Numbered from the stretch's first letter, positions 38,135 through 60,539 are shown. The stretch is DNA of 60,539 bases from an uncultured Ardenticatenales bacterium (GCA_964508275.1 CAZDTE010000002.1:1-60539); one strand, 5' to 3'. Notes: generated by a model from the sequence alone, not told the origin. Made by a program: numbers and translations.

Positions 38135-38140
38135 TCTGCA

Positions 38141-44770: not shown

Positions 44771-44795
44771 TCGTTGGATTCCCTCATGAGCGTGA

Positions 44796-47700
44796 TTACA
44801 GGTTGGCGTTCGGCTCGTTCACAGCTAACGGAACCGAGGCCTCCCAATTGCTAGGATCGCCATTCGTTGTGCCGCGGTCGCTCCATGTTGCCTGCCGGCT
44901 CCGTGCTTCCGTCAAGGCGGGGCCGGCCTGCAATTGCTCGAATGTCTCTGCCGCCTGGGCGAGCAGCGCGCGGGCTTCGGCCTGGCGACCTTGGTTGGCT
45001 CGGAGGTCTGCAAGCCTGAGGCGAGACTTGGCCAGCTCAAAGGGGTGCCGGAGGGCGGCAAATATCTGGCAGGCGGCTTCCAGGTGCTCTTCCGCTGCCG
45101 GCAGGTCGCCGGCAGCGAGACATACCTGTCCGAGGACACGCCGGGCCGCGCCCTCATTGTTTTTGCTCTGCGTTTGGCGGGCCAGGGCGGCGGACCGGTT
45201 GGCCAGCACACTGGCTTCCTCGACCTCGCCCAACCTCAACAGGACATCCGCCATGAGCCACAATATCTCCGCCACCTGCTCGTTCGAGCCGACTTCGCCG
45301 GCCAGGGCCTGGCCGCGCTGCAAATGCCCTAGCGCGCTGCGGAATTCGCCACGCACCAGCGCCAGATGGCCCAGATTGGTGTGGGCAAAGGCCATGAGCA
45401 GGGGGTTGCGAATCCGCCCGGCCACCTCCAGACTCTTTTCCAGAGATTCCTCCGCCTGGTCGAAATTGCCACGATCCCGATAGATCAATCCCAGGTTGTT
45501 GTAGGCTACCGCCACACCCTCGGCGTCGCCCATCTGTTCGCTGTATTGCAGGCTGCGCTGCACACAGTCCAACGCGCGGCCCCATTCCCCCTGGATGATC
45601 AGCAGGCCGGCCAGGTTGCTGAGGGAGCTGGCCACCCCATAGGTGTAACCCATGCGCTCGCGCAGTTGCAGACCCTTTTCGGCGTACTCGGTTGCTTCTT
45701 CCCAGCGGCCGGTCTGGTAATACACGGCGACGAGGCGGTTGTAGGCGGAGGCGATGTCTTGGAATTGGTCCGTACCGTCCAGGATTTCCAGCGCGCGCAG
45801 GGCCCACGAGCGAGCCTTTTGCGATTGTCCCTGACGATAGTTCACCCAGCCCAAGTCGTTATACACGCGGGCCCGTTCTGGAGCGCGGGCCGTTTCCCCG
45901 TCCATGTCCAACTCGGCCAGGGCCAGGCCAAGCCAGCGCAATGCTTCGTTGTATTCTGCTTTGCGTTCCCAGGTGCGCCCGATCTTGCGCAACTGTTCGG
46001 CGATGCGGCGGTGCTGATCGGGCCCCGGCAGCTCGCGTTGGAGGGCGAGCGCTCGTTCGAGCGCCTGGAGTGCAGCGTCGTAGTCACCGGTGTAACTCTT
46101 GACATCCCCCAAGCCCTGAACCACACGAAGCTCCTGGTCGGGCGTCGGCGCGATTCCTGTGAAGTACGCCTCGGCTCGCTGGAAGAGGTTCTCGGCTTGC
46201 TCGTACGCGAACCGTTCCATGGCCCGCTCGGCGGCGCGGGTGGTGTAGGGCATGGCTCGTTCCGCGTAGTCCGCCTCGCCGAAGTGGAAGGCCAGCAAAT
46301 CGACCACCTCGTCGAGACGGCCGGCGTACAGCTGCTCCAGACCAAAACCAGCACGCCGGTGCAGCGCTTTGCGACGTGGCGAAAGGAGCACACCGTACAC
46401 CGTCTCTCGCACAAGGGTGTGGCGGAAGGTGTAGGAGCGCTCATCGCCATCATGCTCCAGGTCCAGGAACTCTCTGTCGGTCAGTTCTCGCAACGCCGCG
46501 TCGAGCGCCGGGCGGTGTTCGTTGCCGACGATGGAATCTAGCAGGGGGTAGGGGATGCGCGGCCCGACGACGGCACTGCATTGCAGTACGTATTTCGGTT
46601 CCCCTGGGAGACGGTCGACACGGCTCATCAGCAGGGCGTGGAGGGATTGCGGGATTCCCAACGCGTTCAGGTCCAGATCGGGTTGCGCCTGCCATTCCCC
46701 GTTCGTCCGCCAGATCGCCCGTTGCTCGATGAGCAGGCGGACAATCTCTTCCAGAAAGAAGGGCGTGCCCTCGGCCTTCTCCGAAATGCCCTGCTGCACC
46801 TGAGGCGGTAAGGCCGGTGACTTGAGGAGCGAATCAACCAGCGTGCGGCTGTCGGCCAGGGACAGCTTGGTCAGCGGCAGATTCAGGTAACGCGCCGGGC
46901 AGGTTTCGGAAGCGACATGGTGGATCGCTGACGCGGCCTGACCCTCGTAGGGCCGGGAGATGAGGCACAGGCAGAGGGCGCGCTGCTCTACCAAGGGTAT
47001 GAGAAACAGCAGGAGGTCCAGGGAGGCGCGATCTACCCAGTGCAGATCGTCCGCAATGATGACGAGAGGCTGGGTGCGGGCAGTAGCAAGAATCAGCCGG
47101 CGCAAGGCCAGAAAGGTCTGCCGGCGCAATTGCTCCGGGGCGAGGTGGCGAATGCGACTCGACCCGACAGGGTCCGTGATCGGTATATCCAGCATCCGCT
47201 GTACAAAAGGGAGTACGCCGGCATATTCGTCGGGCAAGAGAGCCCGGACTCCCTGAAGGCTCTTCTCTTGTCGCGCGTCGTCATCGTCTCCGTAGCGGAT
47301 CCCGAGAAGCTGGTTGAAGAGTTGTTGAAACAGCCAGTAGCTGGTGTGCGTGGCGTGGGAGCGACACGTTTCTTCCAACACCCGCAGGCGTTGTTGAAGC
47401 ATGAACCGCTTGCTCTCTCTGACCAGGCGCGTTTTGCCGATGCCCGCCTCGCCGGTCAACAACACTACATGCCCTTCGTTTCGTTGCACGACGCCGTCGA
47501 TCGCCTGGCGAAGTTGGGCCAGTTCCCGATCGCGCCCGATCATGGGGGAATGTAGGCCGCGAACGCCGCGAATCTGTCCGGGATGCGTTCTCAGGCCGAC
47601 AACTTCGAACGTTTCCGCCGGGGCCTCGCGCCCCTTGACGGTGACCGAGCCATGTGGCAGGTAGTCGAACAAAGCCTCGGTCGCTGCCCACACGGTCTGA

Positions 47701-48425
47701 CTGACCAGGATCGTGTCGGGGATCGCCAGTTCCTCCAGACGGGAGGCCAGGTTCACGGTGTCGCCGATCACGGTGTACTGCATCCGCAGGTCCGAGCCAA
47801 CGGTGCCGGCGATAACCGTGCCGGCGTTCAGTCCGATGCGAACGTGTAACGCGAGGCCGTATTCGCTCTCCAGCCGCCGGTTGAACGTTCGGAGGAAGTC
47901 GAGCATACCGAGGGCCGCCCGCACAGCGCGCTCCGGGTCGTTCTCGTGGGCTAGGGGCGCGCCGAAGAGGGCCATGATGCCATCGCCGATGAACTTGTCG
48001 ATCGTTCCCTCGTATCGGTGGATCTCATCGGCGAAGCCGCGCATGCACTCGCCCAACAGATCGTAGACGCGCTCGGGGTCCATCGTCTCGGACAAGGTCG
48101 TGAAGCCCTGCAGGTCCGCAAAGAGCACGGTCACGTTCCGGCGTTCGCCTTCGATCTTGCCCCGCGAGGCCAGGAGCTTTTCGACGAGATGTTCGGGGAC
48201 GTAGCTGCGCAGACGCTTCCAGGCTTCGTCGTCGCCGGCTGAGGTGGCCGTGGCGGCCGGCTGTTCGGTCAGCAGGCTGGAGCCACAGTTCCCACAGAAT
48301 CTGAATCCGGCCGGGTTCTCGAAGCCACATTGCAGGCAGGCGATTCCCAGCGCAGCAGCACAGGCTGCGCAGATGTGCATACCTGGCGGATTGTCGTGGC
48401 CACAAGCTGGACAACGCTGAGACAT
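44796..48425 (-). CDS. Double zinc-ribbon / class III adenylate(guanylate) cyclase / AAA_16 P-loop (STAND) / TPR multidomain protein
   Basis: 1209 aa. CPACG..CAAC and CLQCG..CGNCG zinc ribbons. Cyclase motifs VLFADLQGFT, DKFIGDGIMALFG and YTVIGDTVNLASRLE. Walker A GEAGIGKTRL and Walker B IIADDLHWVD. About 500 aa of TPR-like repeats with no terminal HTH. Confidence 0.9.
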   Translation of the reverse strand: MSQRCPACGHDNPPGMHICAACAAALGIACLQCGFENPAGFRFCGNCGSSLLTEQPAATATSAGDDEAWKRLRSYVPEHLVEKLLASRGKIEGERRNVTVLFADLQGFTTLSETMDPERVYDLLGECMRGFADEIHRYEGTIDKFIGDGIMALFGAPLAHENDPERAVRAALGMLDFLRTFNRRLESEYGLALHVRIGLNAGTVIAGTVGSDLRMQYTVIGDTVNLASRLEELAIPDTILVSQTVWAATEALFDYLPHGSVTVKGREAPAETFEVVGLRTHPGQIRGVRGLHSPMIGRDRELAQLRQAIDGVVQRNEGHVVLLTGEAGIGKTRLVRESKRFMLQQRLRVLEETCRSHATHTSYWLFQQLFNQLLGIRYGDDDDARQEKSLQGVRALLPDEYAGVLPFVQRMLDIPITDPVGSSRIRHLAPEQLRRQTFLALRRLILATARTQPLVIIADDLHWVDRASLDLLLFLIPLVEQRALCLCLISRPYEGQAASAIHHVASETCPARYLNLPLTKLSLADSRTLVDSLLKSPALPPQVQQGISEKAEGTPFFLEEIVRLLIEQRAIWRTNGEWQAQPDLDLNALGIPQSLHALLMSRVDRLPGEPKYVLQCSAVVGPRIPYPLLDSIVGNEHRPALDAALRELTDREFLDLEHDGDERSYTFRHTLVRETVYGVLLSPRRKALHRRAGFGLEQLYAGRLDEVVDLLAFHFGEADYAERAMPYTTRAAERAMERFAYEQAENLFQRAEAYFTGIAPTPDQELRVVQGLGDVKSYTGDYDAALQALERALALQRELPGPDQHRRIAEQLRKIGRTWERKAEYNEALRWLGLALAELDMDGETARAPERARVYNDLGWVNYRQGQSQKARSWALRALEILDGTDQFQDIASAYNRLVAVYYQTGRWEEATEYAEKGLQLRERMGYTYGVASSLSNLAGLLIIQGEWGRALDCVQRSLQYSEQMGDAEGVAVAYNNLGLIYRDRGNFDQAEESLEKSLEVAGRIRNPLLMAFAHTNLGHLALVRGEFRSALGHLQRGQALAGEVGSNEQVAEILWLMADVLLRLGEVEEASVLANRSAALARQTQSKNNEGAARRVLGQVCLAAGDLPAAEEHLEAACQIFAALRHPFELAKSRLRLADLRANQGRQAEARALLAQAAETFEQLQAGPALTEARSRQATWSDRGTTNGDPSNWEASVPLAVNEPNANL

Positions 48426-48450
48426 GCGGCCCTCTCCCTTACACCATCAG

Positions 48451-48474
48451 CGGATGTTTGTCGACAAACGTCCG
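48451..48474. promoter_or_regulatory. 24-bp near-perfect palindrome (CGGATGTTTGTCGACAAACGTCCG) between the promoter and start codon of the cyclase operon; candidate operator
   Basis: The core GTTTGTCGACAAAC (48456-48469) is a perfect palindrome and the outer arms have one mismatched pair. Confidence 0.55.
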
Positions 48475-48480
48475 TTCACA

Positions 48481-48509
48481 ATTATACAACACATTGCCCC
48501 CGCACGCAA
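48481..48509 (-). promoter_or_regulatory. Sigma70-type promoter of the cyclase operon (TTGCGT-17-TATAAT on the minus strand)
   Basis: -10 is the reverse complement of 48481-48486 and -35 is the reverse complement of 48504-48509, with an exact 17-nt spacer. Confidence 0.65.
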
Positions 48510-48609
48510 CATACTAAAGGTACTATCAGAAGCCTTACCACCACGCCAAGGTAGTGTATCCCTTACGGTGGATATTCGGCCAGGGGGAACATTGTGCATC
48601 CTGCGTCAT

Positions 48610-48698
48610 GGGGCGGGCAAAGGTTGCCAACTTTCCAAAGGTTGGCAACCTTTCACGAGGACACACTTTCCACCGAATTGTATGCACCACCCCACGCC
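48610..48698 (+). repeat. Palindromic repeat family, copy 3 (plus orientation)
   Basis: GGGGCGGGCAAAGGTTGCCAACTTTCCAAAGGTTGGCAACCTTTCACGAGGACACACTTTCCACCGAATTGTATGCACCACCCCACGCC. The 13-bp stem is 48619-48631 / 48641-48653. Confidence 0.85.
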
Positions 48699-48707
48699 AA
48701 CAAGCTC

Positions 48708-48736
48708 TTGTTTTTTCGCAGAAGTCGTGGTATAGT
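48708..48736 (+). promoter_or_regulatory. Sigma70-type promoter (TTGTTT-17-TGgTATAGT)
   Basis: Extended -10 at 48728-48736. Lies 26 nt downstream of the repeat core and upstream of the enoyl-CoA hydratase gene. Confidence 0.55.
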
Positions 48737-48867
48737 ATGACCAGCAACCACCCCGGCGAGTGCAGGAGAACGGTCGAGTCGTTGTTGGCTTCTGTCCATC
48801 GCTCGGGTCCCCCGATCTTGATCGAAGGATCGAGGGCGGTTTGATCAGGAACGAAGGAGGTTAGCCG

Positions 48868-49650
48868 ATGTACGAGACGATTCGCTATGCTACAAGCGAC
48901 CGCATGGCCACACTCACCCTTCACCGCCCGCAGGTCCGCAACGCCCTGAACGCTGTCCTGCTCCGCGAATTGCTCGACGCGTTGCAGGAGGCAGAAGGCG
49001 ACGACGGTGTGCGCGCTCTGATCCTTACCGGCAGCGGCCCGGCCTTCTGTGCCGGGCAGGACCTGACGGTATTCCAGCAGGCCCTGGAGGCGGGACAGGC
49101 CCCCGACGTGCAACGGTTGCTGGACGAGACGTACCATCCCGTGGTCCGCGCGATTCACGACATGCCGAAGCCGGTGATCGCCGCTGTCAACGGCGCGGCC
49201 GCCGGTGCGGGCATGAGTCTGGCCCTGGCCTGCGATCTGCGGATCATGGCGGAGGATGCGTTCTTCACCCAGGCGTTCATCCGCCTAGGCCTGGTGCCCG
49301 ATTCCGGCTCTACCTTTTTCCTCACCCGGCTGGTGGGCCCGGCGCGCGCCTTCGATCTGGCCGCGAGCGGCCGGCGCGTGGGCGCGGCAGAGGCGCTGCG
49401 GCTTGGTCTGGCGGAGCGCGTTGTGCGGGCCGGCGACGTGCTGCCCACTGCCCAGGAGGAGGCTTCGCGGTTGGCGCAGCGGCCGGCTCGCGCCATCGCC
49501 TGGACGAAGCAGCTTTTTCAGAAGGTGGCGCGACTGGACATGGAGGCAGCATTGCAAGCAGAAGCGACGCTGCAAGCGAAGGCCATCGTCACGGAGGAGC
49601 ATCGAGAGGGGGTGCAAGCCTTCATGGAGAAGCGATCGCCGCGGTTCTGA
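48868..49650 (+). CDS. Enoyl-CoA hydratase/isomerase (crotonase) family protein
   Basis: 260 aa. LTLHRPQVRNAL, GSGPAFCAGQDL and AAVNGAAAGAGMSLALACD oxyanion-hole regions. AAGGAGG RBS. Confidence 0.9.
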   Translation: MYETIRYATSDRMATLTLHRPQVRNALNAVLLRELLDALQEAEGDDGVRALILTGSGPAFCAGQDLTVFQQALEAGQAPDVQRLLDETYHPVVRAIHDMPKPVIAAVNGAAAGAGMSLALACDLRIMAEDAFFTQAFIRLGLVPDSGSTFFLTRLVGPARAFDLAASGRRVGAAEALRLGLAERVVRAGDVLPTAQEEASRLAQRPARAIAWTKQLFQKVARLDMEAALQAEATLQAKAIVTEEHREGVQAFMEKRSPRF

Positions 49651-49692
49651 GATCAGAGTACCACCGTCCTATGGAAGAAGTGGGCATTGTGT

Positions 49693-49701
49693 GGTATAAT
49701 C
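49693..49701 (+). promoter_or_regulatory. Extended -10 element (TGgTATAAT) starting a ~320-nt untranslated leader or independent RNA
   Basis: Read directly. The -35 is weak. The next start codon I accept is at 50027. Confidence 0.45.
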
Positions 49702-50026
49702 GGTTAGTTAAGAAAAGTGGGGCATGCAATCGAGAGGACGTCCTGGCGGGGTCAATTGAAAGCCGAGATGACCACCGACAGCACCCCTTAGACTACGTAC
49801 GGAACGTCCGCCTCAGGGCAGGCTGCGCTGACTGTCAGTCTGAGCAGGGGAGCCGGAGTGCGCGGAGGAGTAAGGGGCCTCGATGTGTAGTGTCAACCTA
49901 TCGCCCCAGCATCCTTGCTCCCTTGAACAGAGTGCAGCGGTCGGTGGCTCGCAGTCTGTAGTCATTTCCTTGCCGGCGGCCGCTGCTGTTTCATAGGAAT
50001 TCAGTGGAGATTCTCAAGTACTGATC

Positions 50027-51721
50027 ATGACCTACGGTGCTGGTGAGACACAAGTAGCCCACGACCGCACACTAGATCAGAGGGCTCAGGGATGGCTTCC
50101 GAGGTCTGGATGGACGCTTGGGTTGGCCGTCCTGATCGCAGCCGTCGCAATATTCCACATTGCGACCTTACGTCGTTTTCCGATAGTATATGTAGATGAG
50201 GCCTGGATGGCGAGCCGCGCTTGGGCATGGCTCCACACTGGTCTAAATTTCGGCCCACTGGACGCAGGCGTATGGGACAAGTTTGAAGGTTACTGGACGG
50301 TTCTCCCATTGCTGCCTACTCTAGTCAATGCCACGTTTATTCGGCTTTTTGGATTGAAGGTTGGCTCTCTGCGTCTGGCGTCGCTGCTGGCCGGATTTGG
50401 GCTTCTGGCCATAGTCTATTACATTTTCTATGAACTTTACCGCTCTCGTCGTGGCGGCCTCATAGCAGTTTTCCTGGTCTCAACATCCCTCTCTTTCCTG
50501 TACTCTTCCCACTTCATTCGGCAGGATATCTATGTTGCTACATTAGGCTTTGGCGCAATAGCGCTCTACCTCGCCGGACGTCGCAGACAGCAATCGGTTC
50601 TCAGCTTGTTGGCAGGCCTGCTGATAGGTGCAGCCTTTGAATTCCATCCAAACGGTGCGATCTATGCGCCAGTGATCGGGGCCTTGTACCTGCTGGACGA
50701 TGGGAGGCATTTTGTTCGTCGGCGGAGCTTCTGGGTCTTCGTGTTTGGAATCTGTCTCGGTCTGGCTTGGTATGCCTGGCTCCACATTATACCATACCCT
50801 CAGACGTATGTCGCTATGATGAGCCGCAAATCCCTCGTCACACACATGCCGCCTATTGCCTCACGCAACCCCATCACGATCTTGCTCGGTCTTTCGAGCA
50901 TGGCAGGATACCTCTTCCTGGGCACTGGCGGGCGCATATTGGCAACAGCGGTCATTGCTACCATCGTTCTACGGCACAAGTGGACCGCTCTTCACGTGAA
51001 GCCTCTTGTGATGCTTGCAGTAGGAGTGACAACATTTGCACTTCTCATCCGAAATAGGGTGGGACATTACGTCATCCTTGTTGCGCCTTTTTCAGACATC
51101 GTTTTGGCTGGCTGGATCGAGCAAGCCCTGCAAGCCACAGGCGTGGATAGTCCCTGGCTAGGTAGGGGGAATGCCGTTGTCCTCTCAGCAGTAGCGATGA
51201 GTCTCGTTTTCACGTATGGGACGGTCATACTGACCCCACCGCCTGGAGACATGGAACTGGTTGCTAATCGCATCGAACTAGTCATGTCGCCAAGTGATAC
51301 GGTTATCGGTTCTCAGACATACTGGTTTGGCCTCTATCAATATAACTACCAGTCTTGGCATCAGATTCTGCGCTATCAATGGTTTAATCCGGGTAGCACA
51401 TTTGAAGAGGCCATGAAAGCGCTGCGCCCTGATGTGCTGGTCATGGATGTCTATTGGCGTTCTTTCACTGTGGAGGGTCCACAACACAGCCCGCGATCAG
51501 GCCTTCCGCCTGGTGACTGGGACAGGGGTCTATCGAATGAAGAGGTGAAATCCTTCCTCACTCGCTATGGGAGATTGGAGGATAGATTTTATACTGCTTC
51601 ATACGGAACGGTTGAGATATACTCTCTTCACTGGGATCGCCAAGACGTAGGGTTCGTGGACGCTGACAAGCGCCCTGATGCAGAGCCAGCCATCCGCAAG
51701 GAGATGTCACGTTGGAGGTAG
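50027..51721 (+). CDS. GT-C membrane glycosyltransferase G1 (GT39/PMT_2-like), lower G+C than its neighbours
   Basis: 564 aa and polytopic. Acidic first-loop motif VYVDEAW after TM1. Hand-counted G+C is 28-35 per 60 nt in three lines. Confidence 0.85.
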   Translation: MTYGAGETQVAHDRTLDQRAQGWLPRSGWTLGLAVLIAAVAIFHIATLRRFPIVYVDEAWMASRAWAWLHTGLNFGPLDAGVWDKFEGYWTVLPLLPTLVNATFIRLFGLKVGSLRLASLLAGFGLLAIVYYIFYELYRSRRGGLIAVFLVSTSLSFLYSSHFIRQDIYVATLGFGAIALYLAGRRRQQSVLSLLAGLLIGAAFEFHPNGAIYAPVIGALYLLDDGRHFVRRRSFWVFVFGICLGLAWYAWLHIIPYPQTYVAMMSRKSLVTHMPPIASRNPITILLGLSSMAGYLFLGTGGRILATAVIATIVLRHKWTALHVKPLVMLAVGVTTFALLIRNRVGHYVILVAPFSDIVLAGWIEQALQATGVDSPWLGRGNAVVLSAVAMSLVFTYGTVILTPPPGDMELVANRIELVMSPSDTVIGSQTYWFGLYQYNYQSWHQILRYQWFNPGSTFEEAMKALRPDVLVMDVYWRSFTVEGPQHSPRSGLPPGDWDRGLSNEEVKSFLTRYGRLEDRFYTASYGTVEIYSLHWDRQDVGFVDADKRPDAEPAIRKEMSRWR

Positions 51722-52947
51722 CACCCCTGAGAAGCAAAGCATCTGATCGTTCAAGAAAACGTAGCTGGCTACAAGTTTGGGTGCTACTTGTGCTCGGTGC
51801 CTTGCTCTTTGTAGCTTTGACCATCGCATTGCGAGAAACGTTTACATCCCCCCATCCCGGCGCCAATGACTTCTACATCCCCTGGCGCGCCGTACGCGCG
51901 CTGGTCGTCGAAGGGCGCAATCCCTACTCACCCGAGGTCACTCGAGACATCCAGCAAGTGCTCTTTGGCGGCCCACGTCCGCCGGGGACTCATCAATACG
52001 CCTTCGCCTACCCCCTCACCGTGCTACCGCTGCTGGCACCACTCGCTCCTTTGCCCTACGATTGGGCGGAGGCGATCTGGGTGACCCTGTCAATGTGGGC
52101 CTTGCTGGGCGGACTCTTCTTGTCGCTGCGCGTGCCGGACTGGTCCCCGCGGCCGCTCTTCATGGCGGTGCTGGCCATCTGGGCGTTACTCTTCTATCCC
52201 GCAGCGCGCGCCCTGATCCTGGGCCAGATCGCGGCGATTGTGTTCTTCCTGGCCACCGCAAGCATCTACCTGCTCCACCGGGGCCATCCGGCCTGGGCAG
52301 GCGTAGCCCTGGCCGCCACGACCATCAAACCGCAAATGGTCGTCTTGCTGATCCCGATTCTGCTGCTGTGGGCGACTGAACGGCGGCAGATGATCGTCTG
52401 GCGCACATTCGCCGTGACGCTGGCCGGCATGGTGCTGCTTCCGCTCCTGTGGCTGCCCACCTGGCCGCTCGATTTCGTCCGCGCCGTGACCGACTACGCC
52501 GGCTACGTCCCCGTCGGCTCTCCCGTCGGGATCGCGCTTTCGGCCTTGCCGGCGTCCGGGGTCATGACCATCGCGTTGGACGGTGCGCTCATGGCGCTCC
52601 TGGCCTACGGATACTGGCGTGAACGGGCGCACGGAACGGCGAGCCTGTTGTGGCTCGCCAGCCTGGCCATCGTCGTTGGCCTGCTAATCGTGCCGCGCGG
52701 CGGAACGACGAACCAGGTCCTGCTGATCATTCCCTGCATGCTGGCGACTTGCTGGTTCGTGCATCGCCACCGCGGCCCGCTGATGACCTCTCTGATCCTG
52801 GCCCTGCTTCTCGTCCTGCCGTGGCTCCTGTTCCTGGCTACCGTGCAGGGGAACACCGAGCAAGTGATCATGTTCGTGCCCCTGCCGTTCGCTGTTCTGC
52901 TGCTACTCTGGCCGATCCGGCCGGGAGGGCGTCCATGCGCGTCGTAG
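51712..52947 (+). CDS. GT-C membrane glycosyltransferase G2 (DUF2029/GT87-like)
   Basis: 411 aa. First-loop motif GANDFYIPW and TTIKPQMVVLL (the KPQ motif typical of DUF2029). The TTG start overlaps the G1 stop. Confidence 0.82.
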   Translation: MEVAPLRSKASDRSRKRSWLQVWVLLVLGALLFVALTIALRETFTSPHPGANDFYIPWRAVRALVVEGRNPYSPEVTRDIQQVLFGGPRPPGTHQYAFAYPLTVLPLLAPLAPLPYDWAEAIWVTLSMWALLGGLFLSLRVPDWSPRPLFMAVLAIWALLFYPAARALILGQIAAIVFFLATASIYLLHRGHPAWAGVALAATTIKPQMVVLLIPILLLWATERRQMIVWRTFAVTLAGMVLLPLLWLPTWPLDFVRAVTDYAGYVPVGSPVGIALSALPASGVMTIALDGALMALLAYGYWRERAHGTASLLWLASLAIVVGLLIVPRGGTTNQVLLIIPCMLATCWFVHRHRGPLMTSLILALLLVLPWLLFLATVQGNTEQVIMFVPLPFAVLLLLWPIRPGGRPCAS

Positions 52948-53213
52948 CCGGCCGGATCGGCCTCGCCGCGCTGGTCATCGCCTGGCTGACTGCCGTCCTG
53001 GTCAGTTTCTACGCCGTGCAAAAACCGTTCGATCTGGCGCAGGTTCGAGCCATGGCCCAAACCGGTTGGAACATTGCCGTCGCTGTGATCGTGCTCGGCG
53101 CCGCCACACGCCTCGGCCTGTGGATCAACCGTTGCTTCTCGCTGCCCGCGCTCGGTATCGGTGAACGTTTCGGGCTCCAGCCCCTTCTGGAGGGCGGCGA
53201 TGAACTCGATTGA
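52935..53213 (+). CDS. Small two-TM membrane protein G3 (92 aa), possibly a gene remnant
   Basis: MRVVAGRIGLAALVIAWLTAVLVSFYAVQKPF.. fills the 252-nt gap between G2 and G4 exactly. Its ATG overlaps the G2 end and its stop overlaps the G4 start. Confidence 0.55.
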   Translation: MRVVAGRIGLAALVIAWLTAVLVSFYAVQKPFDLAQVRAMAQTGWNIAVAVIVLGAATRLGLWINRCFSLPALGIGERFGLQPLLEGGDELD

Positions 53214-54339
53214 GCGGATCTTCCACCCCAGCCGTCGAATTCATTCGATGGCTGCTGCCCTGGAGTTGGCTCTACTGGCCCTGCTGGCCGGGTGGGTGCT
53301 CACCACCTGGCGCTACCCGGCCGGCGACTTCCTGAACAACGCCTGGGCCCCGGCCCGCCTCCTCTGGCTGGGTGGCAACTCGCCGTATGACCAAGCCGCA
53401 GCGAGCCAACTCCTCGCCGGTGCGGCCACCAGCCCGGTGCTGCAAGCCGTCTGGACTCCTCTGGCCCTGCCGCTCTTCTTGCCCCTGTCTTTCCTCCCGC
53501 CCGGACTGGCGGCGAACCTGTGGTTCCTGGCCCAGTTTGCCTGGCTGTTGATGGCGGCTGCCCTACTGAGCCGGTCGAAGGCTGCCGGTCCTCGTTCGCT
53601 CCTTGCCCTGACGGTGCTCATGCTCTTTCCCCCCGCCCTGAACGCGCTAATGCTGGGACAGGTGACGGCATTCGCTGTGGTCGTTCTCGTGGCCGGAGCG
53701 CTGGCCGCCGATCGTGGGCGAGTCCGGCTGGCCGGGTTCCTGATGGCCTGGGCCTTGATCAAGCCGCAATTGACGCCACTGATTCTGCTGGCGCTCGGTG
53801 TTTGGGTGTGGCAAGGGAGGCGGCTTCGGCAACTGCTGATCGGGGGATCGTGCGGTCTGGTCACCGGCCTGGGGCCCATCATCGCGCTGCGACCGACCAT
53901 CGCCGGCGAGTACGTGAGCGCACTGCGCACCAACCCGCAATGGCTACATGCCAGCCTGCCGGCCCTCGTGCGCGAAGCGACCGGCAAGGCCGGTGCAGGA
54001 TACGCAACCTGGCTCATCCTCGCCACCGCCGTCCTGTGGGTGACCTACCGCGTCTGGCAAGTACTGCCCTTCCGGCCGGCTGTCGCCTGGACGTTGGCGC
54101 TCACTCTATTGGTCACGCCCTACGTGTGGAGCTGGGATCAAGTGCTCCTGCTGCCGCTGATGGGGCACGTCTCCCTGTCGACACGGGGCTGGCAGGCCGC
54201 CGGCTGGTGGATCGGCCTGGCCCTGATCGCCGGTGGCTACCTCTGGATCGGGCTGCGCGTGCAGAACGCCAGCCACTGGTACACCTGGGTGCCTTACGCG
54301 GTGATGGCTTTGGCCTGGGGGATGCGCGATGGGGCCTAA
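53200..54339 (+). CDS. GT-C membrane glycosyltransferase G4 (DUF2029/GT87-like)
   Basis: First-loop motif PAGDFLNNAW and WALIKPQLTPLILL (KPQ motif). About 10 hydrophobic segments. Confidence 0.8.
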   Translation: MNSIERIFHPSRRIHSMAAALELALLALLAGWVLTTWRYPAGDFLNNAWAPARLLWLGGNSPYDQAAASQLLAGAATSPVLQAVWTPLALPLFLPLSFLPPGLAANLWFLAQFAWLLMAAALLSRSKAAGPRSLLALTVLMLFPPALNALMLGQVTAFAVVVLVAGALAADRGRVRLAGFLMAWALIKPQLTPLILLALGVWVWQGRRLRQLLIGGSCGLVTGLGPIIALRPTIAGEYVSALRTNPQWLHASLPALVREATGKAGAGYATWLILATAVLWVTYRVWQVLPFRPAVAWTLALTLLVTPYVWSWDQVLLLPLMGHVSLSTRGWQAAGWWIGLALIAGGYLWIGLRVQNASHWYTWVPYAVMALAWGMRDGA

Positions 54340-55855
54340 GCCCAGTCGTATCAGAATCGAGCACCTATGGGTGTTAGCTCTCCTGGCCAGTGCCTTCACA
54401 CTGGTCTCGGTCAGCCCGGTGCCGCCGCACGACTTCTGGTGGCACGCCCGCATCGGTGAACAGATCGTCCACCTGCGGGCCATCCCCACTGCCGACACGT
54501 TCTCGTTTGTCGCCCAAGGCCGGCCGGTGTTTTACCAGAGCTGGCTGAGTGAGGTGGCCCTCTACGGCCTGCTATACGCTGGCGGGTTGCCATTGGCGAT
54601 CTTCGTGCAAGCGTTGCTGATTGCCTTCACCTACGGCTGGCTGTACCTGCTGTGCCGTGAGGGAAGCGGAGGGAATCACCGCCTCGCTGCGTTCTGCACC
54701 GTCTGGGTGCTGTTCGCCGCCTCAAATAACTGGGCCATCCGTCCCCAGAGCTTCTCGTTCTTGCCTTTCCTCCTGTTCCTCTGGGTGCTACGAGGCTACG
54801 TACGCGGCCGGCGAGTCCCGGTCTGGTTGTTGCCCGTGGTGATGGCCCTGTGGGTCAACCTGCACGGCGCGTTCATCCTGGGCGCGATCATGGCCCTGCT
54901 CGTGCTTGCCGGATCGCTGCTCGACCGCCACCTGCCGCTTCGTCGCGACTCCGGCCCCCCGGCGCTCAAGCCGCTGGCCGTCGCCGCGCTTGCCACCCTG
55001 CCGGCGATGCTGCTGAACCCGCGCGGTCTCGGCGTGATCGGCTACGTCATCAACCTGCTTACCAACCCACCCAGCCAGCAGTTGATCATGGAATGGCGGC
55101 AGCCAGACATCCACGGCTTCCAGGGCCGGTTGTTCTACGCCCTGCTGCTGGTTTGTGTGCTTGCGTTTGCGACCTCGCGTCGTCGCCTCCGCTGGGCCGA
55201 CCTGCTCCTCTTTGCCGCCTTCGCCTGGATGGGACTGACCTCCATCCGCTACGTCATCTGGTTCGGTCTGGTGGCCGCCCCGCTGTTGGCCGAATCGCTG
55301 GCTGCGCAGAACTGGCCGATCAGCGAACGTTGGGCCCGGTTCAAGCAAAGTCGCCTGGGACAGATCCTCTTCGTCGGTCAAGAAGGCGGCTATCCCGGCT
55401 TCACGGTTCTGATCATCACGCTGATCGTCCTGGAGGTGCTGATCGCCCTGCCCTGGAACAAAGAGCGCCTGCCACTGCCCCCCGCTGTCGCCGGCTTGAC
55501 AACGCCCGACACTCCCGTGGCCGCCACGCAGTTCCTGCTGGAGCACGACCTGCCCGGTCCCCTGTTCCACGACATGGGCTACGGCAGCTACCTGATCTGG
55601 GCCGCTTGGCCTCGCGTACGGGTCTTCAGCGATCCGCGTGTCGAGTTGTACCCGCTGGATCTCTGGCTAGACTACGCCACGATCTCGTCTGCCCGATACG
55701 ATTATGCCGCTTTGCTGCAGCGCTACGGCATACAGACCCTCATGCTCGACCAGGTGAATCAGGCAGCCCTCATCGAGGCGGTCAGTGCGGCAGGCAGTGG
55801 CTGGCAACCGTTCTACGACGACGGGCGCACTGCCATCTTCCGGAGAGCCCCATGA
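54329..55855 (+). CDS. GT-C-like polytopic membrane protein G5 (family not recognised)
   Basis: 508 aa. First-loop motif PPHDFWWHARIGE. Many TM segments plus a C-terminal soluble domain. Confidence 0.78.
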   Translation: MGPKPSRIRIEHLWVLALLASAFTLVSVSPVPPHDFWWHARIGEQIVHLRAIPTADTFSFVAQGRPVFYQSWLSEVALYGLLYAGGLPLAIFVQALLIAFTYGWLYLLCREGSGGNHRLAAFCTVWVLFAASNNWAIRPQSFSFLPFLLFLWVLRGYVRGRRVPVWLLPVVMALWVNLHGAFILGAIMALLVLAGSLLDRHLPLRRDSGPPALKPLAVAALATLPAMLLNPRGLGVIGYVINLLTNPPSQQLIMEWRQPDIHGFQGRLFYALLLVCVLAFATSRRRLRWADLLLFAAFAWMGLTSIRYVIWFGLVAAPLLAESLAAQNWPISERWARFKQSRLGQILFVGQEGGYPGFTVLIITLIVLEVLIALPWNKERLPLPPAVAGLTTPDTPVAATQFLLEHDLPGPLFHDMGYGSYLIWAAWPRVRVFSDPRVELYPLDLWLDYATISSARYDYAALLQRYGIQTLMLDQVNQAALIEAVSAAGSGWQPFYDDGRTAIFRRAP

Positions 55856-57480
55856 CTCTGCGGCGCACGCTGGCCGGACTGTTCCTGGTCACCCTGATCG
55901 TCAGGGCCCTAACTGCCTGGCCGTTGCAACAGCCCGGCTACTTCGACGCCTACTACTACGTGAACGTGGCCCACAACCTTCTGCACGGGCAGAGTCTGGT
56001 GGAGCACGTGGTCTGGAACTTCCTGGACAACCCAGCGACCATTCCCCACCCCAGCCACCTCTACTGGATGCCCCTATCGACATTCCTGGCGTATACGGGC
56101 ATGTGGCTATTCGGTGACAGTTACCGGGCCAGCCATGTCCCGTTCGTGTTGCTCTCTTCGCTGCTGCCGCCACTGGCAGCCTGGCTGGCCTATCACGTCT
56201 GGCGAAACCTCCGTTACGCCTGGGCTGCCGGCCTGCTTACCCTGTTCAGCGGCTTCTACTTCATCTACTGGGTGACGCCAGAAAACTGGACGCCGTTCGC
56301 CCTGGCGGTGGACGCGGCGTTGGTGGCCCTCTACGTTGGCCTGCGCACGGGGCGCGAGCGCTACGTCATCGCCGCCGGCCTGGCGGCCGGCTTCGCTCAC
56401 CTGGCCCGCGCCGACGGCATCCTGCTCCTCCCCGTTGCTGTCCTTGCCATCGCCGCCCAGAACACGGCCCCCAACCCGAAACTCGAAACTCGAAACCCGA
56501 AACCGTCCCGTTCATCATTCATCATTCGTCATTCATCATTGTTTGTCCTCGCCTACTTCCTTGTCATGGCCCCGTGGTTCTACCGCAACTGGCAAGTCGC
56601 CGGGACACCTCTGCCCACCGCCGGCACCAAGACGATCTTTCTGCGTAGCTACGACGACTTATTCGGCTACGGTCTAGACCTCACCCTGCGCAGCTACCTG
56701 GCCTGGGGGATCGGGCCGATCCTGCGATCCAAACTGATGGCCACGCTGTGGAATCTGGTGATCCTGGCCGGTGCGTTACAATTCTTCCTGGCCCCGTTCG
56801 CCGTCATCGGGTTCTGGCAGACCCGTCGCCACCCGCTGTGGCGACCATTCTTCGTCTACTGCGCGGCCCTCGTCGCCGCGATGGTGCTGGTCTTCACCTT
56901 CCCCAGCCGGCGTGGCTCCATGCTCCACTCTGCAGCGGCCCTGATCCCGTTCGCCTGTGCCGCCGTGCCTGCCGGAGTCGAGGCGACTGTCCAACGCATC
57001 GCCCGTTGGCGGCACACGTGGAACGTTGAAGAAGCCCAGCGCTTCTTCGTCTACGGTTTCGTCGCGCTGGCTGCTGTCATCAGCCTCTTCCTCTACGCGC
57101 AGGCGATCCACGAACCGTGGCTGGGCGAATCTCTCCTGCCGCCGTGGAATGAGCGCGGGCTGGTTTACCGGGAGGTGGACACCTGGCTGGCAGAGCACGA
57201 TCCCGCTGCCGGGCGGCTGATGGCGGTCGATCCACCCGCCGTCCACTACTTCACCGGACGCGAGGCGGTGGTAATCCCCAACAACGGCGTCGACCTGATT
57301 CGGGCCGTGAGCCGCCAGTTCGACGTTTCCTACCTCGTCCTGGAAAAAGATCACATCACTCCCCTGAACGGCCTTTACGATGACCCAGAGAGCCTGCCCG
57401 GGTTCGTGTTGCTGGCCCGCTTTCAAGATGCCAAGGACAATCCCGTGTACCTTTTCCACCTGAAGAGGGTTGAACGTTGA
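55852..57480 (+). CDS. GT-C membrane glycosyltransferase G6 (GT39/ArnT-PMT-like)
   Basis: Trimmed from ORF 54850-57480 to MTLRRTLAGLFLV, with an ATGA overlap with G5. First-loop motif GYFDAYYYV. Contains in-frame heptanucleotide arrays at 56475-56538. Confidence 0.85.
   Translation: MTLRRTLAGLFLVTLIVRALTAWPLQQPGYFDAYYYVNVAHNLLHGQSLVEHVVWNFLDNPATIPHPSHLYWMPLSTFLAYTGMWLFGDSYRASHVPFVLLSSLLPPLAAWLAYHVWRNLRYAWAAGLLTLFSGFYFIYWVTPENWTPFALAVDAALVALYVGLRTGRERYVIAAGLAAGFAHLARADGILLLPVAVLAIAAQNTAPNPKLETRNPKPSRSSFIIRHSSLFVLAYFLVMAPWFYRNWQVAGTPLPTAGTKTIFLRSYDDLFGYGLDLTLRSYLAWGIGPILRSKLMATLWNLVILAGALQFFLAPFAVIGFWQTRRHPLWRPFFVYCAALVAAMVLVFTFPSRRGSMLHSAAALIPFACAAVPAGVEATVQRIARWRHTWNVEEAQRFFVYGFVALAAVISLFLYAQAIHEPWLGESLLPPWNERGLVYREVDTWLAEHDPAAGRLMAVDPPAVHYFTGREAVVIPNNGVDLIRAVSRQFDVSYLVLEKDHITPLNGLYDDPESLPGFVLLARFQDAKDNPVYLFHLKRVER
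56475..56538 (+). repeat. Two heptanucleotide tandem arrays inside G6: (CYCGAAA)x4 at 56475-56502 and (TTCRTCA)x4 at 56511-56538
   Basis: Units read directly: CCCGAAA CTCGAAA CTCGAAA CCCGAAA, then TTCATCA TTCATCA TTCGTCA TTCATCA. They translate as NPKLETRNPKP..SSFIIRHSS. Confidence 0.88.
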
Positions 57481-59075
57481 ACGATAAACGCATCACGCAA
57501 TACGCAACACGCAACACGCAATACGCATTGCCCAGATGGACGTCGTTCGTGGGGATTGCCCTGATCGCCCTGGCCAGCGTCATGGCCTATGTCGGCCTCA
57601 CGCGAGTTGCCCTGGGCCAGTTGGGTTTCCCTCTGGACGATGCCTGGATCCACCAGACCTACGCCCGTAACCTGGTCGAACTGGGCCGGTGGGCTTTCGT
57701 GCCCGGCGAGCCGAGCGCCGGCTCCACCGCGCCGCTGTGGACGATCCTGCTGGCCCTCGCCCACCTCTTGCCTGGCGACTTCCATCTCTGGACCTACCTC
57801 TTCGGCGCTACCGGCCTGCTCATGGTCGGCGTCGGAACTTGGCGACTCTCCCTCCTCCTGTTCGGAAACAGTCGCCTGGCCGGCGTCACGGCGTTGTTCT
57901 GCCTGCTGGAGTGGCACCTCGTGTGGGCCGGCGCCTCGGGCATGGAGATCACGTTCTTCGGCGGGCTGGCTCTGATCGTGATGGCCCGTTACCTGGAGGG
58001 TGTCCGCGGGCTGTCTGGGGAGCGCAAACGGGCCAGCCGCCTGCGCCCGCTGCAATGGGGGCTGTTGACCGGCCTCCTGGTGATGACCCGCCCGGAAGGC
58101 CTCATGCTCGGCGCCATCATCGGCGGGCACATGGTCTTGGTGCTCGCAACCGAGCGGGCGAGGGCGGACGCCGAACAATTCGGAACCGACCTCGGCATGG
58201 GCGATCTCCTGGTCTTCGGTTTCGGCGCGCTGCTCGTCGTCGGGCCGTATCTCCTCTACAACTGGAGTCTCAGCGGCACGATCTTCCCGAACACGTACTA
58301 CGCCAAGCAACATGAGTACCGGATTCTGCTCTCCGCGGTGCCCTGGTGGCGGCGGCTGTTCTCTGTCGGTGCGGCTCCCTGGATCGGGGCCCAGGTGCTG
58401 CTCCTGCCCGGTCTGGTCTACCAGGTCATCACGGGTGGGCAGAGAGATGGTTCTTCTCGCTGGCTCGCCTTGCTGTCGTCGAACGTGCCGTTGGGGTGGG
58501 CCCTGCTCACGATCCTGGCCTATGCCTTGCGCCTGCCGGTCACCTATCAGCACGGGCGGTACGTGATGCCGGTCATTCCGGTGCTGATCGTGTACGGGGT
58601 TGGCGGCACCGAGCGGCTGCTCAACCGGCTGGACCTCCGGCTGCTGCGGTTCGTTGTAGCGCTCTCGACCGGCGCGTTGCTCGTCGCGTTCTGGGTCTTG
58701 GGCGCGCAGGCGTATGTCCAGGACGTGGACATCATTAACTGCGAGATGGTCTCCATCGCTCGCTGGCTGGACGCGAACGCCCCACCGGATGCCTTGATCG
58801 CGGCCCACGACATCGGCGCCATCGGCTACTTCACCCGTCGCCCGCTGCTCGACCTGGCCGGGCTGGTGAACCCGGAAGTGATCCCGATCCTGCGTGACGA
58901 AGCGGCCCTGCAGGTGTGGCTGGTGCGCCGCCGGGCCGACTACCTGGTCACGCTGGGCGACTGGTACACGACGTTGGGGCGCACAGCCGATTGGCTAGCG
59001 ATCCATCGGGCGTCCTGCCCGCGGGTGCAGGCTGCCGGGAAAGAGGACATCGTGGTCTACGTCGCCGTCCGTTGA
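57477..59075 (+). CDS. GT-C-like polytopic membrane protein G7
   Basis: 532 aa. First-loop motif LGFPLDDAWIHQTYARNL and a C-terminal soluble domain. The TTG start overlaps the G6 stop (TTGA). An alternative TTG start is near 57527. Confidence 0.78.
   Translation: MNDKRITQYATRNTQYALPRWTSFVGIALIALASVMAYVGLTRVALGQLGFPLDDAWIHQTYARNLVELGRWAFVPGEPSAGSTAPLWTILLALAHLLPGDFHLWTYLFGATGLLMVGVGTWRLSLLLFGNSRLAGVTALFCLLEWHLVWAGASGMEITFFGGLALIVMARYLEGVRGLSGERKRASRLRPLQWGLLTGLLVMTRPEGLMLGAIIGGHMVLVLATERARADAEQFGTDLGMGDLLVFGFGALLVVGPYLLYNWSLSGTIFPNTYYAKQHEYRILLSAVPWWRRLFSVGAAPWIGAQVLLLPGLVYQVITGGQRDGSSRWLALLSSNVPLGWALLTILAYALRLPVTYQHGRYVMPVIPVLIVYGVGGTERLLNRLDLRLLRFVVALSTGALLVAFWVLGAQAYVQDVDIINCEMVSIARWLDANAPPDALIAAHDIGAIGYFTRRPLLDLAGLVNPEVIPILRDEAALQVWLVRRRADYLVTLGDWYTTLGRTADWLAIHRASCPRVQAAGKEDIVVYVAVR
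57495..57529 (+). repeat. Heptanucleotide tandem array (ACGCAAY)x5 at the G6/G7 junction
   Basis: ACGCAAT ACGCAAC ACGCAAC ACGCAAT ACGCATT read directly. If G7 starts at 57477 it translates as ITQYATRNTQYAL. Confidence 0.88.
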
Positions 59076-59131
59076 GGCGCAGACTGGGGGGGTCAGGTTG
59101 CGATGAGTGTGAGGAGGAGGTGTGACAGACG

Positions 59132-60253
59132 ATGACGAATACAGCGCGACGGTTGGGTGTCCTGACGGGTGGTGGCGATTGTCCGGGCTTGAACGCCGTC
59201 ATCCGCGCCATCGTGAACACGGCCATCAACGAGTACAGTTGGGATGTGTTGGGCTTCGAGGACGGGTTCGAGGGCCTCATCCAGCCGGGGAAAGTGCGGT
59301 CGCTCACGCTGGCCGATGTGCGAGGCATTCTGCCCCAGGGTGGCACGATCTTGGGCACGACCAACCGGGCCAACCCATTCCATTACGAGGTGGAGACGGA
59401 GGAGGGCGTGAAGGTCTTCGATGTGTCGGATGACGTGGTGCGGCACGCGCAAGTGCTGGGCATCGATGTGTTGGTCGTCATCGGCGGTGATGGGTCGCTG
59501 CGCATAGGCCAAGAGCTGATCGAGAAGGGGATGAAGATCGTCGGCGTGCCCAAGACGATCGATAACGACCTTCAAGGTACTGTTGTGACCTTTGGCTTCG
59601 ATACCGCCGTCAACACCGCCATGGAGGCCCTCGACAAGCTGCACACCACCGCCGAGAGCCACCACCGCGTCATCATCTTGGAGGTGATGGGGCGTGACGC
59701 CGGCTGGATCGCCCTGCAGGCCGGTATCGCCGGCGGAGCGGACGTCATTCTGATCCCCGAAATCCCCTATGACCTGGAGGTGATTGCCGGCAAGATCAAC
59801 GCCCGGAATCGGCGTGGAGCCAAGTTCAGCATCGTGGTGATCGCCGAAGGAGCCAGGTCGGTGGGCGGCGACGCTGTGTACCAGGAGGGGCGCGAGATCG
59901 GCGCCGTTCGCCGACTGGGCGGAATCGGCGAAGCGCTGGCCGGGCAACTCAGGACTAGCTGCCAGACTGAGGTGCGTGTGACCGTGCTCGGACATCTCCA
60001 GCGCGGCGGATCTCCGTCCGCGTTCGACCGGCTACTGGCCAGTCGCTTTGGTGCGATGGCGGTGCATCTGGTCGCCGAGGGCCAAGTCGGGCACATGGTC
60101 GCCCTGGAGAATGACCGCATTGTCAGCGTGCCGATCGCGGAGGCCGTCGCGCAGCAGAAGTTTGTCCCTCTGGACAGCGACATCCTGCGCACAGCCTTTG
60201 GACTCGACATCTGCTTGGGCAACACGCGCGCGGCCATGGCGGCCAGCCCATGA
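59132..60253 (+). CDS. pfkA: 6-phosphofructokinase
   Basis: GVLTGGGDCPGLNA, IGGDGS, PKTIDND and VMGRDAG motifs. 373 aa. Confidence 0.92.
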   Translation: MTNTARRLGVLTGGGDCPGLNAVIRAIVNTAINEYSWDVLGFEDGFEGLIQPGKVRSLTLADVRGILPQGGTILGTTNRANPFHYEVETEEGVKVFDVSDDVVRHAQVLGIDVLVVIGGDGSLRIGQELIEKGMKIVGVPKTIDNDLQGTVVTFGFDTAVNTAMEALDKLHTTAESHHRVIILEVMGRDAGWIALQAGIAGGADVILIPEIPYDLEVIAGKINARNRRGAKFSIVVIAEGARSVGGDAVYQEGREIGAVRRLGGIGEALAGQLRTSCQTEVRVTVLGHLQRGGSPSAFDRLLASRFGAMAVHLVAEGQVGHMVALENDRIVSVPIAEAVAQQKFVPLDSDILRTAFGLDICLGNTRAAMAASP

Positions 60254-60457
60254 ACCCGGAACGCTGTGCCGTGCGCACGCGGCGTACGCCACCAAGGATG
60301 AATATGGGGTCACAGATCTCCCTCATTCAATCCCACCCGCTGGGGGGAAGCGGCCGCCGGCGAGCGTTCGCTCTCCCATGCGAGGGTCCCCCTCAGTGGG
60401 GAGCTGGTGTTTTCACGGGAGTTATGACGTATCATCTCAATAACTTGGGGAACACCC

Positions 60458-60539
60458 CCGGCCCCCAATTCTGGGGGAGCACGCCCCCCAATTCTGGGGG
60501 AGCACGCCCCCCAATTCTGGGGGAGCACGCCCCCCAATT
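60458..60539. repeat. 23-bp tandem direct repeat (ACGCCCCCCAATTCTGGGGGAGC), 3 full copies plus 1 partial, truncated by the window end
   Basis: Units at 60458, 60481, 60504 and 60527. Each unit contains the small palindrome CCCCCA-ATTC-TGGGGG. There are no spacers between units. Confidence 0.9.

Follow-up and report, generated by a model that had tools for sequence, protein, structure and literature searches.

Results

A GT-C glycosyltransferase array in an Ardenticatenales bacterium

We analysed a 60,539-nucleotide stretch of DNA from an uncultured Ardenticatenales bacterium (GCA_964508275.1 CAZDTE010000002.1:1-60539; the whole stretch is called the window hereafter), whose nearest genomic relatives are Ardenticatenales metagenome-assembled genomes (MAGs) of the phylum Chloroflexota. 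At positions 50027-59075 the window carries an operon-like array of seven genes, G1 to G7, six of which encode glycosyltransferases of the GT-C superfamily: one GT39-like, two GT87, one ArnT/PMT_2-like and two from families without Pfam models. The remaining gene, G3, is the stub of a deleted gene. We consider it reasonably probable that the six distinct enzymes carry out a stepwise glycosylation at the outer face of the membrane and build one mannose-rich surface glycoconjugate.

An earlier reading made from the DNA alone (the sequence-only reading) had described seven same-strand open reading frames (ORFs) with overlapping stops and starts, and the rechecked coordinates and frames confirmed an overlap at all six junctions. 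The start of G2 at 51712 lies before the stop of G1 at 51721, the following overlaps are at 52935/52947, 53200/53213 and 54329/54339, and the last two junctions are an ATGA at 55852-55855 (G5/G6) and a TTGA at 57477-57480 (G6/G7). Shine-Dalgarno motifs of the GGAG type were found 7-9 nt upstream of the starts of G2, G3 and G4. Of the seven genes announced, the six enzymes stood and the seventh did not, G3 being a 92-residue stub of a PMT_2-type gene. Co-transcription agrees with the overlap of all junctions and with the lack of an intergenic terminator, whereas the promoter and terminator scans of the region gave signals no better than chance. A terminator-like GC-rich repeat was seen on the minus strand at the G6/G7 junction (57519-57488).

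The six large proteins are GT-C enzymes

All seven proteins had been described as spanning the membrane several times, and a Kyte-Doolittle scan gave 8-11 transmembrane-like segments in each of the six large proteins, to be compared with roughly 7-13 in polytopic GT-C enzymes, and two in G3. The acidic motifs reported just past the first transmembrane segment (TM1) were recovered at residues 54-60 of G1, 50-58 of G2, 40-49 of G4, 32-39 of G5, 29-37 of G6 and 52-59 of G7, and the KPQ motif at residue 206 of G2 and 188 of G4. The acidic residue of loop 1, directly past TM1, is conserved in each family examined (G1, G2, G5, G6 and G7), and Asp43 of G4 sits in the same GDF motif. G1, G2, G4 and G6 were assigned by Pfam and profile matches, and G5 and G7 from AlphaFold2 models, which show a three-dimensional likeness to solved GT-C enzymes. 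Six of the six large proteins are GT-C glycosyltransferases by Pfam, by the PimE profile match or by structure models, where the sequence-only reading had allowed that most might prove to be something else, such as transporters. A transporter reading was rejected, transporters being matched only at Foldseek E >0.1 and a TM-score of about 0.1 when G5 and G7 were compared with the PDB.

By sequence comparison, the six proteins are distinct lineages and not recent duplicates. Pairwise similarity was detected only between G2 and G4 (35% identity over 69 residues, E 7e-6). The comparison of family profiles by hhalign indicated a remote kinship between the G7 and G1 families (probability 91%, E 1.2e-6), and no signal between the G5 family and those of G7 and G1 (probability 0.7% and 2.3%, respectively).

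G2 (51712..52947, + strand, 411 residues, TTG start), with the loop-1 motif GANDF, and G4 (53200..54339, +, 379 residues, ATG start), distant from G2, both matched the GT87 family PF09594 (cut-off 25) with 51 bits (E 2.2e-13) and 46.6 bits (E 4.6e-12), respectively. A GT87 profile built from 30 sequences, G2 and G4 included, matched the structure of PimE (9dm5) with an E value of 7.8e-13 over residues 61-380. Asp53 of G2 is at least 90% conserved across these 30 sequences. The loop-1 catalytic residue of PimE is Asp58; since the HMMER alignment starts at PimE residue 61, a few residues downstream of the position where Asp53 falls, the equivalence of the two is extrapolated and not aligned. Orthologues of G2 are 35-38% identical in two related loci (L006 and L007; loci are given L numbers) and 52% identical in L091, and the orthologue of G4 in L005 is 63% identical.

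G1 (50027..51721, +, 564 residues), a GT39/ArnT-like protein with a C-terminal extracytoplasmic domain, matched PMT_2 (E 6.5e-9, 36.6 bits for a cut-off of 26.1), and its score for PMT (PF02366), 21.4 bits, was just under the cut-off of 22.7. Among its 58 homologues, some are named glycosyltransferase family 39 protein by NCBI. Asp57 of the VDEAW motif is invariant in the family, and Glu58 is at least 90% conserved. The gene call of the Joint Genome Institute (JGI) starts at 50207 (Met61) and drops TM1 together with VDEAW; since both are conserved in the homologues, the start at 50027 is right and the long form is correct.

G5 (54329..55855, +, 508 residues, ATG start) and G7 (57477..59075, +, 532 residues) had no match in Pfam, G5 having none in Pfam or NCBIfam at E<=1 and G7 a weak NCBIfam match to the LA_3751/3752 putative glycosyltransferase family. 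Searches of PDB chains with family profiles returned nothing for G5, G7 or G1, and the GT-C(A) fold of G5 and G7 was revealed by structure comparison only. The model of G5 has a predicted local distance difference test (pLDDT) score of 92.4 and a predicted TM-score (pTM) of 0.91; Foldseek aligned it with STT3 (top match), AglB, PglB, ArnT and AftA at E values of 6e-7 to 5e-4 and TM-scores up to 0.60. In the same way, the model of G7 (pLDDT 88.8) matched STT3 at 5e-9, ArnT (TM-score 0.57), AftB, ALG9/12 and DPY19, at E values between 5e-9 and 7e-5 and TM-scores up to 0.60, with STT3 and ALG9/ALG12 among its top matches. Both models consist of 11-13 long helices followed by a C-terminal alpha/beta domain, and in both an invariant aspartate (Asp35 in the PHDFWWH motif of G5; Asp54/Asp55 in the PLDDAWIHQ motif of G7) opens the helix after TM1, which is the canonical catalytic position in GT-C enzymes.

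Residues Asp35, Arg138, Gln140, Trp175, Asn177, His179, Glu255 and Arg307 of G5 are invariant in 40 sequences. Of 1.84 billion cluster representatives, the G5 profile matched 37,047 at E<=1e-3, with 12,470 still matched at E<=1e-30. The 120 best G5 homologues all lack a Pfam domain and any name beyond hypothetical. For G7, whose Asp54 and Asp55 are both invariant in 41 sequences, more than 4,678 homologues were found, some of them named arabinofuranosyltransferase by JGI.

G6 (55852..57480, +, 542 residues) reached PMT_2 only marginally (26.4 bits for the 26.1 cut-off), with a weak ArnT match; its orthologues pass PMT_2 clearly, as in L006 (36.2 bits, 9e-9). Its loop-1 motif GYFDAYYY has the aspartate without an Asp-Glu pair, and this Asp32 and a PSHLYWMPL motif are invariant in seven orthologues. 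Residues ~200-235 of G6 (window 56440-56560) form a variable low-complexity loop, NTAPNPKLETRNPKPSRS, which in the orthologue of L084 (11488-13200) has grown into a long Ser/Pro-rich repeat.

G3 as the remnant of a longer gene

G3 (52935..53213, +, 92 residues with two transmembrane segments, ATG start) had no match in Pfam. Its residues 11-79 match the N-termini of PMT_2-type GT-C proteins of 672-687 residues in L084, L006 and L085 (the best, in L084, at 54% identity and E 5e-16), and these full-length counterparts sit between a GT87 gene and G5. In L005, the nearest relative with upstream sequence (G5 73% identical), a full-length counterpart, 65% identical to the L084 protein and with PMT_2 at residues 150-291 of a partial ORF, precedes the orthologue of G4. 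These comparisons indicate that ~1.8 kb of a PMT_2-type gene of ~675 codons was deleted in the lineage of the window, leaving G3. Since the PMT_2 module starts after residue ~150 in the full-length proteins, G3 holds no catalytic part. G3 was also considered as a small accessory subunit; this was rejected, since the match is confined to the first ~80 residues encoded by a gene that four relatives keep intact. The stub keeps a GGGAGG ribosome-binding site and an ATG and overlaps both neighbours; with these signals it may still be expressed as a peptide with two transmembrane segments.

A conserved but plastic array in Chloroflexota

The G5 family was used to find 79 loci in GTDB species representatives, which we compared together with eight further neighbourhoods. 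A dispersal of the orthologues, which the sequence-only reading had named as evidence that would speak against it, was not observed: G5-G6-G7 or G6-G7 stays clustered in Ardenticatenales and Anaerolineae. The three genes are kept at 45-76% identity in L003, L004, L006, L007, L084 and L085, and G6-G7 also in the Anaerolineae loci L086, L089 and L090, which gives nine related loci with the pair in all.

The homologous arrays hold about 4 to 11 GT-C genes. That of L090 reads GT87, long PMT_2, GT87, PMT_2, unknown, G6, G7; L088 has three PMT_2 genes and unknowns, with G7 last; L089 has two YfhO-like genes ahead of G6-G7 and a 956-residue PMT_2 gene after G7. When joined, L084 and L091 give about 12 same-strand genes, about 11 of them GT-C-like. 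The operon of the window is thus a pared-down form of a GT-C array that is conserved yet plastic, in which G5-G6-G7 form the stable core and G1-G4 a variable 5' module that is gained, lost and exchanged between lineages. The stoichiometric coupling read earlier from the overlaps was overstated, the array being a reduced, lineage-specific form of a larger and variable one.

The base composition of the 5' end was also considered. G1 has a GC content of 0.533 and a GC content at third codon positions (GC3) of 0.558, compared with a GC3 of 0.75-0.86 in G2-G7 and both flanking genes. A recent horizontal insertion of G1 had been considered from this GC3 value and was dropped once L091 showed the same order: an enoyl-CoA hydratase (ECH) gene, G1 and G2 follow each other in the window and in L091, where the ECH gene is a remnant upstream of a compositionally normal G1 orthologue (G1 59% and G2 52% identical). 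Given this shared order, it is more likely that a resident G1 allele was replaced by one from a lower-GC relative (allelic or xenologous replacement) than that G1 was newly inserted. GC is also lower in the 5' genes of the L084 array than in its G5-G7 core. With the G3 stub and the foreign composition of G1, the 5' end turns over as surface-antigen loci do, which hints at selection on a surface structure.

Some gene associations were observed in single loci. In L085 (2597-5941), an Ardenticatenaceae-like locus, an MMPL-family transporter gene lies two genes upstream of GT87, long PMT_2, G5, G6 and G7; this linkage, a single case, would favour a glycolipid product if functional. In L086, from the complete Anaerolineae genome CP070818.1, a DUF2079 membrane protein gene precedes G6-G7 and a phosphoribosyl pyrophosphate (PRPP) synthetase gene follows (11569-12516), which may be a coincidence or a hint of a pentose donor.

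A GT2 gene akin to dolichol-phosphate-mannose synthase adjoins G5-family genes in related loci

The ORFs of the 79 G5-family loci were clustered, and counts were made on the 77 GTDB loci, which hold 116 copies of the G5 family, with at least two copies in 37 of them. A GT2 gene of ~250 codons directly adjoins a G5-family gene in 23/77 loci and lies within 4 kb in 31/77. The GT2 protein matches the Pyrococcus dolichol-phosphate-mannose (DPM) synthase 5mlz over the whole catalytic domain (E 2e-33), the next-best matches being undecaprenyl-phosphate sugar transferases of the ArnC type. This proximity of a DPM-synthase-like GT2 indirectly supports the use of a polyprenyl-phosphate hexose by the G5 family, and the donor of the family would most plausibly be such a hexose, mannose.

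The usual order is a HisKA_3 kinase (-), GT2 (-), G5 (+) and G5 (+), and the kinase linkage hints at a regulated envelope glycosylation. This order was seen to recur in Chloroflexia, in L013, L022, L038, L043, L050, L057, L064, L068, L070, L071, L080 and others. The G5-GT2 linkage includes the cultivated Oscillochloris trichoides (L014); of a Roseiflexus-labelled MAG (L068) and a Kouleothrix-labelled one (L030), only the former has the GT2 adjacent. GT87 genes were found within 10 kb of G5-family genes in 20 of the 77 loci, and in Anaerolineae the arrays also contain PIG-V-like (Mannosyl_trans2) genes and one more GT-C-like family without annotation. Large bidirectional arrays were observed in five uncultured Chloroflexia and Anaerolineae MAGs (L016, L018, L021, L028 and L072), with 3-6 GT87 genes, two G5-family genes, Mannosyl_trans2 and a DPM-like GT2; all five also hold an unannotated membrane family of ~489 residues with an ADYGEAPL motif past TM1, probably another GT-C family without a Pfam model.

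A GtrA-like flippase gene was not found among the small recurrent neighbour ORFs of the 79 loci. Two candidates, families f34 and f27, were discarded as antisense ORFs and G5 fragments. The neighbour families YceG, RuvB, DUF362, DUF4962 and others gave no pointer to an acceptor.

Flanking genes and other features of the window

Upstream of the array, the ECH gene (48868..49650, +; ECH_1/ECH_2) is separated from G1 by a gap of 376 bp and lies outside the system. Downstream, a phosphofructokinase (PFK) gene with a PFK Pfam match (59132..60253, +) begins 56 bp past G7 and is probably outside it too; the gene after the G7 orthologue in L003 and L004 (family f26, median 374 residues) is of similar size and may be PFK.

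As the sequence-only reading had noted, gene and Pfam annotation placed no cytoplasmic glycosyltransferase, donor synthase or flippase within the cluster, and the two further GT-C genes of the window were confirmed: 7301-9646 (-), with PMT_2, and 15032-16891 (+), with TMEM260_N and a weak PMT_2 match. Far from the operon, and apparently unrelated to it, lie a MurJ-like gene (24989-26503) and a pair of GT4-like and GT2-like genes (31303-33899). In window 31303-38152, the GT4-like and GT2-like genes are followed by genes for proteins of 717 and 595 residues, each with a single N-terminal transmembrane or signal segment and no Pfam domain, and this region may be a separate glycan-related cluster. 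At 44796-48425 (-), a protein of 1209 residues has double zinc-ribbon, adenylate/guanylate cyclase, AAA ATPase and TPR regions, and adjoins a patatin-like gene with cyclic-nucleotide (cNMP) binding; the two may form a cyclic-nucleotide signalling pair. Rfam and tRNA scans of the window returned nothing.

The window is part of the JGI metagenome 3300002231, in which two nearly identical contigs, L001 and L002, cover window ~44300-60500. In the second contig of this pair, frameshifts interrupt G1, G4, G6 and the adenylate-cyclase gene upstream; this reflects either an error of assembly or sequencing, or else a strain carrying pseudogenes in the same community.

Discussion

The reading that we favour, a stepwise outer-face glycosylation by six GT-C enzymes, can be written as four steps. 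At the inner membrane face, a GT2 of the DPM1/Ppm1 type, encoded elsewhere in the genome, would charge polyprenyl phosphate with a hexose, which is most likely mannose supplied by GDP-mannose. The lipid-linked sugar would then be flipped to the outer face, where each GT-C enzyme would transfer one sugar to the growing acceptor by means of its conserved loop-1 aspartate. The different families would give different linkages or acceptor specificities, and would jointly build and decorate one mannose-rich surface glycoconjugate. The analogy for such a division of linkages is with PimE and MptA-C in mycobacteria and with ALG3/9/12 in eukaryotes. As these pathways do, the array draws on different lineages rather than duplicates, which was counted in favour of a joint function. 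The use of polyprenyl-(pyro)phosphate-sugar donors by the enzymes of the array is itself a prediction, and we likewise infer which sugar is donated, that the enzymes act in sequence on one acceptor, and what this acceptor is.

Several points weigh against such an assembly line. Neither in nor beside the operon is there a gene for a donor synthase, a flippase, a priming enzyme or an acceptor, and a tblastn search of the 60-kb window found no DPM-like GT2. Co-transcription of G1-G7 is suggested by the overlapping junctions only. The identity of the sugar is not readable from sequence, and for G7 Foldseek does not separate ArnT, AftB and STT3 as models, while JGI has given arabinofuranosyltransferase names. 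The content of the array varies strongly between lineages, here with the deletion in G3 and the foreign composition of G1, and such variation is as compatible with independent decorating modules as with a fixed assembly line. In the literature, we found no biochemistry for these families in Chloroflexota and no description of such arrays.

Extracytoplasmic GT-C and three-component glycosylation systems, pentofuranose systems included, have been described (Kelly et al. 2024, PMC11127046), and the resemblance of a G5-family gene with its adjoining GT2 to GtrB with a GT-C suggests that the genes could be independent decorating modules of this type. They would add side-branch sugars to a backbone made elsewhere, such as a wall polysaccharide, an S-layer glycan or a sheath, and would be clustered only by a shared donor and by exchange as a variable cassette, for example in phage evasion. 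The strong 5' variation between lineages, the G3 deletion stub, the foreign GC3 of G1 and the lower GC of the L084 5' genes than of the G5-G7 core are all consistent with this. However, G5-G6-G7 and G6-G7 keep their order and their overlapping junctions even between genomes whose proteins are only 40-50% identical, and this deep collinearity argues for functional interdependence; moreover, the 79 loci yielded no GtrA-like flippase gene. We regard independent modules as rather unlikely. Protein O-glycosylation, in which G1 would put the first mannose on Ser/Thr and the GT87 and other GT-C enzymes would extend the O-glycan, draws on the conserved Asp57-Glu58 of VDEAW, on the PMT_2 match with PMT just below the cut-off, on the GT39 names of homologues, on the first place of G1 in the array both here and in L091, and on the two more PMT_2/TMEM260-like genes of the window. 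A loop-1 Asp-Glu motif is typical of protein O-mannosyltransferases, and the actinobacterial Pmt uses polyprenyl-phosphate-mannose. Yet G5-G6-G7 occur without a G1 homologue in most relatives (no G1 match in the 79 loci), the PMT score of G1 is under the cut-off, no acceptor protein gene is linked, and the nine to eleven GT-C genes of relatives exceed the need of any known bacterial O-mannosylation system, so that this explanation is unlikely.

A last alternative replaces mannan by a pentofuranose polymer, arabinan-like or ribofuranose-like, made in the Aft/Emb manner from donors derived from polyprenyl-phosphoribose. Structure comparison of G5 and G7 returned AftA and AftB among the matches, several G7 homologues bear the JGI name arabinofuranosyltransferase, and a PRPP synthetase gene follows the G7 homologue of L086; this enzyme is, however, a housekeeping one and was found beside G7 only once. 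The recurrent linked synthase is DPM-like, that is a hexose-phosphate-polyprenol synthase, and the GT87 and PIG-V-like partners belong to mannosyltransferase families. No UbiA-type phosphoribosyltransferase or DprE1/E2-like gene was seen among the annotated neighbour families or in the neighbourhoods annotated with Pfam, most neighbour ORFs of the 79 loci never having been scanned. A pentofuranose product seems improbable.

The product that we favour for the six enzymes is a mannose-rich glycoconjugate, which may be a lipoglycan, a wall polysaccharide or a protein O-glycan. More tentatively, and at less than even confidence, we propose that G5 represents a new GT-C family at the CAZy level which, with the DPM1-like synthase and often the HisKA_3 kinase, would serve a Chloroflexota-wide envelope glycosylation, the arrays building a lipomannan-like or wall-bound mannan. 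The Chloroflexota abound in sediments, soils, hot springs and wastewater sludge, and their envelope chemistry is poorly known. If the proposal is true, a major undescribed envelope polymer would exist in a phylum whose cell-envelope architecture is debated. Dense arrays that combine different GT-C enzymes are conserved in Ardenticatenales and in Anaerolineae, and the G5 family is very large, outside Pfam and NCBIfam, and linked to a DPM-like gene across the phylum. They open a concrete, testable route to an outer-face glycan pathway beyond the Actinobacteria, and offer candidate founders of new glycosyltransferase families.

Comparison with known systems

The GT-C superfamily is known, and the logic proposed here is akin to mycobacterial lipoglycan assembly and to three-component systems; the differences lie in the phylum, the operon-like concentration of many GT-C families and the two families without Pfam models. 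Among eukaryotic systems, the series of distinct GT-C enzymes recalls the lumenal ALG3/ALG9/ALG12, ALG6/8/10 and STT3 enzymes of the endoplasmic reticulum. ALG3/9/12 and ALG6/8/10 act in order and add one sugar each from dolichol-phosphate-mannose or dolichol-phosphate-glucose. Only the fold is shared with them (9-15% identity), and no sign was seen here of a pyrophosphate-linked oligosaccharide carrier or of an oligosaccharyltransferase step. With the actinobacterial Pmt/GT39 enzymes and Ppm1, the array has in common the loop-1 Asp-Glu of G1, its PMT_2/PMT similarity and the likely class of donor. It differs from them by the PMT score of G1 below the cut-off, by five more coupled GT-C genes and by the occurrence of G5-G7 mostly without G1.

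The GtrA/GtrB/Gtr* three-component systems combine a GT2 polyprenyl-phosphate-sugar synthase with an outer-face GT-C, as does the G5-GT2 pair in Chloroflexota. In contrast to these systems, the arrays have no linked flippase gene of the GtrA or MATE type and contain up to about 11 GT-C genes instead of one, and the operon of the window has no synthase. Of the Gtr components, the window has the GT-C; a GT2 adjoins only in relatives, and no GtrA-like gene is a recurrent neighbour.

A further comparison is with the mycobacterial and corynebacterial pathways of phosphatidylinositol mannosides, lipomannan (LM), lipoarabinomannan (LAM) and arabinogalactan (AG), in which several outer-face GT-C enzymes, GT87 included, use polyprenyl-phosphate sugars (PimE, MptA/B/C, AftA-D, EmbA-C, with Ppm1). 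The two GT87 proteins of the window match PimE as a profile, and a DPM-like GT2 is linked to G5 in relatives. The differences are the phylum Chloroflexota, the four of six enzymes that belong to other families, with G5 and G7 lacking a Pfam model, and the lack of linked priming glycosyltransferases of the PimA/PimB type or of genes for a phosphatidylinositol anchor. The Emb and Aft Pfam families match none of the seven proteins, no GT4 or GT2 lies in the operon, and a Ppm1-like gene is linked only in other Chloroflexota. The genes of the mycobacterial pathway are largely dispersed, whereas those of the window form one overlapping operon. The operon would work like the mycobacterial LM/LAM/AG pathway but is no member of that pathway.

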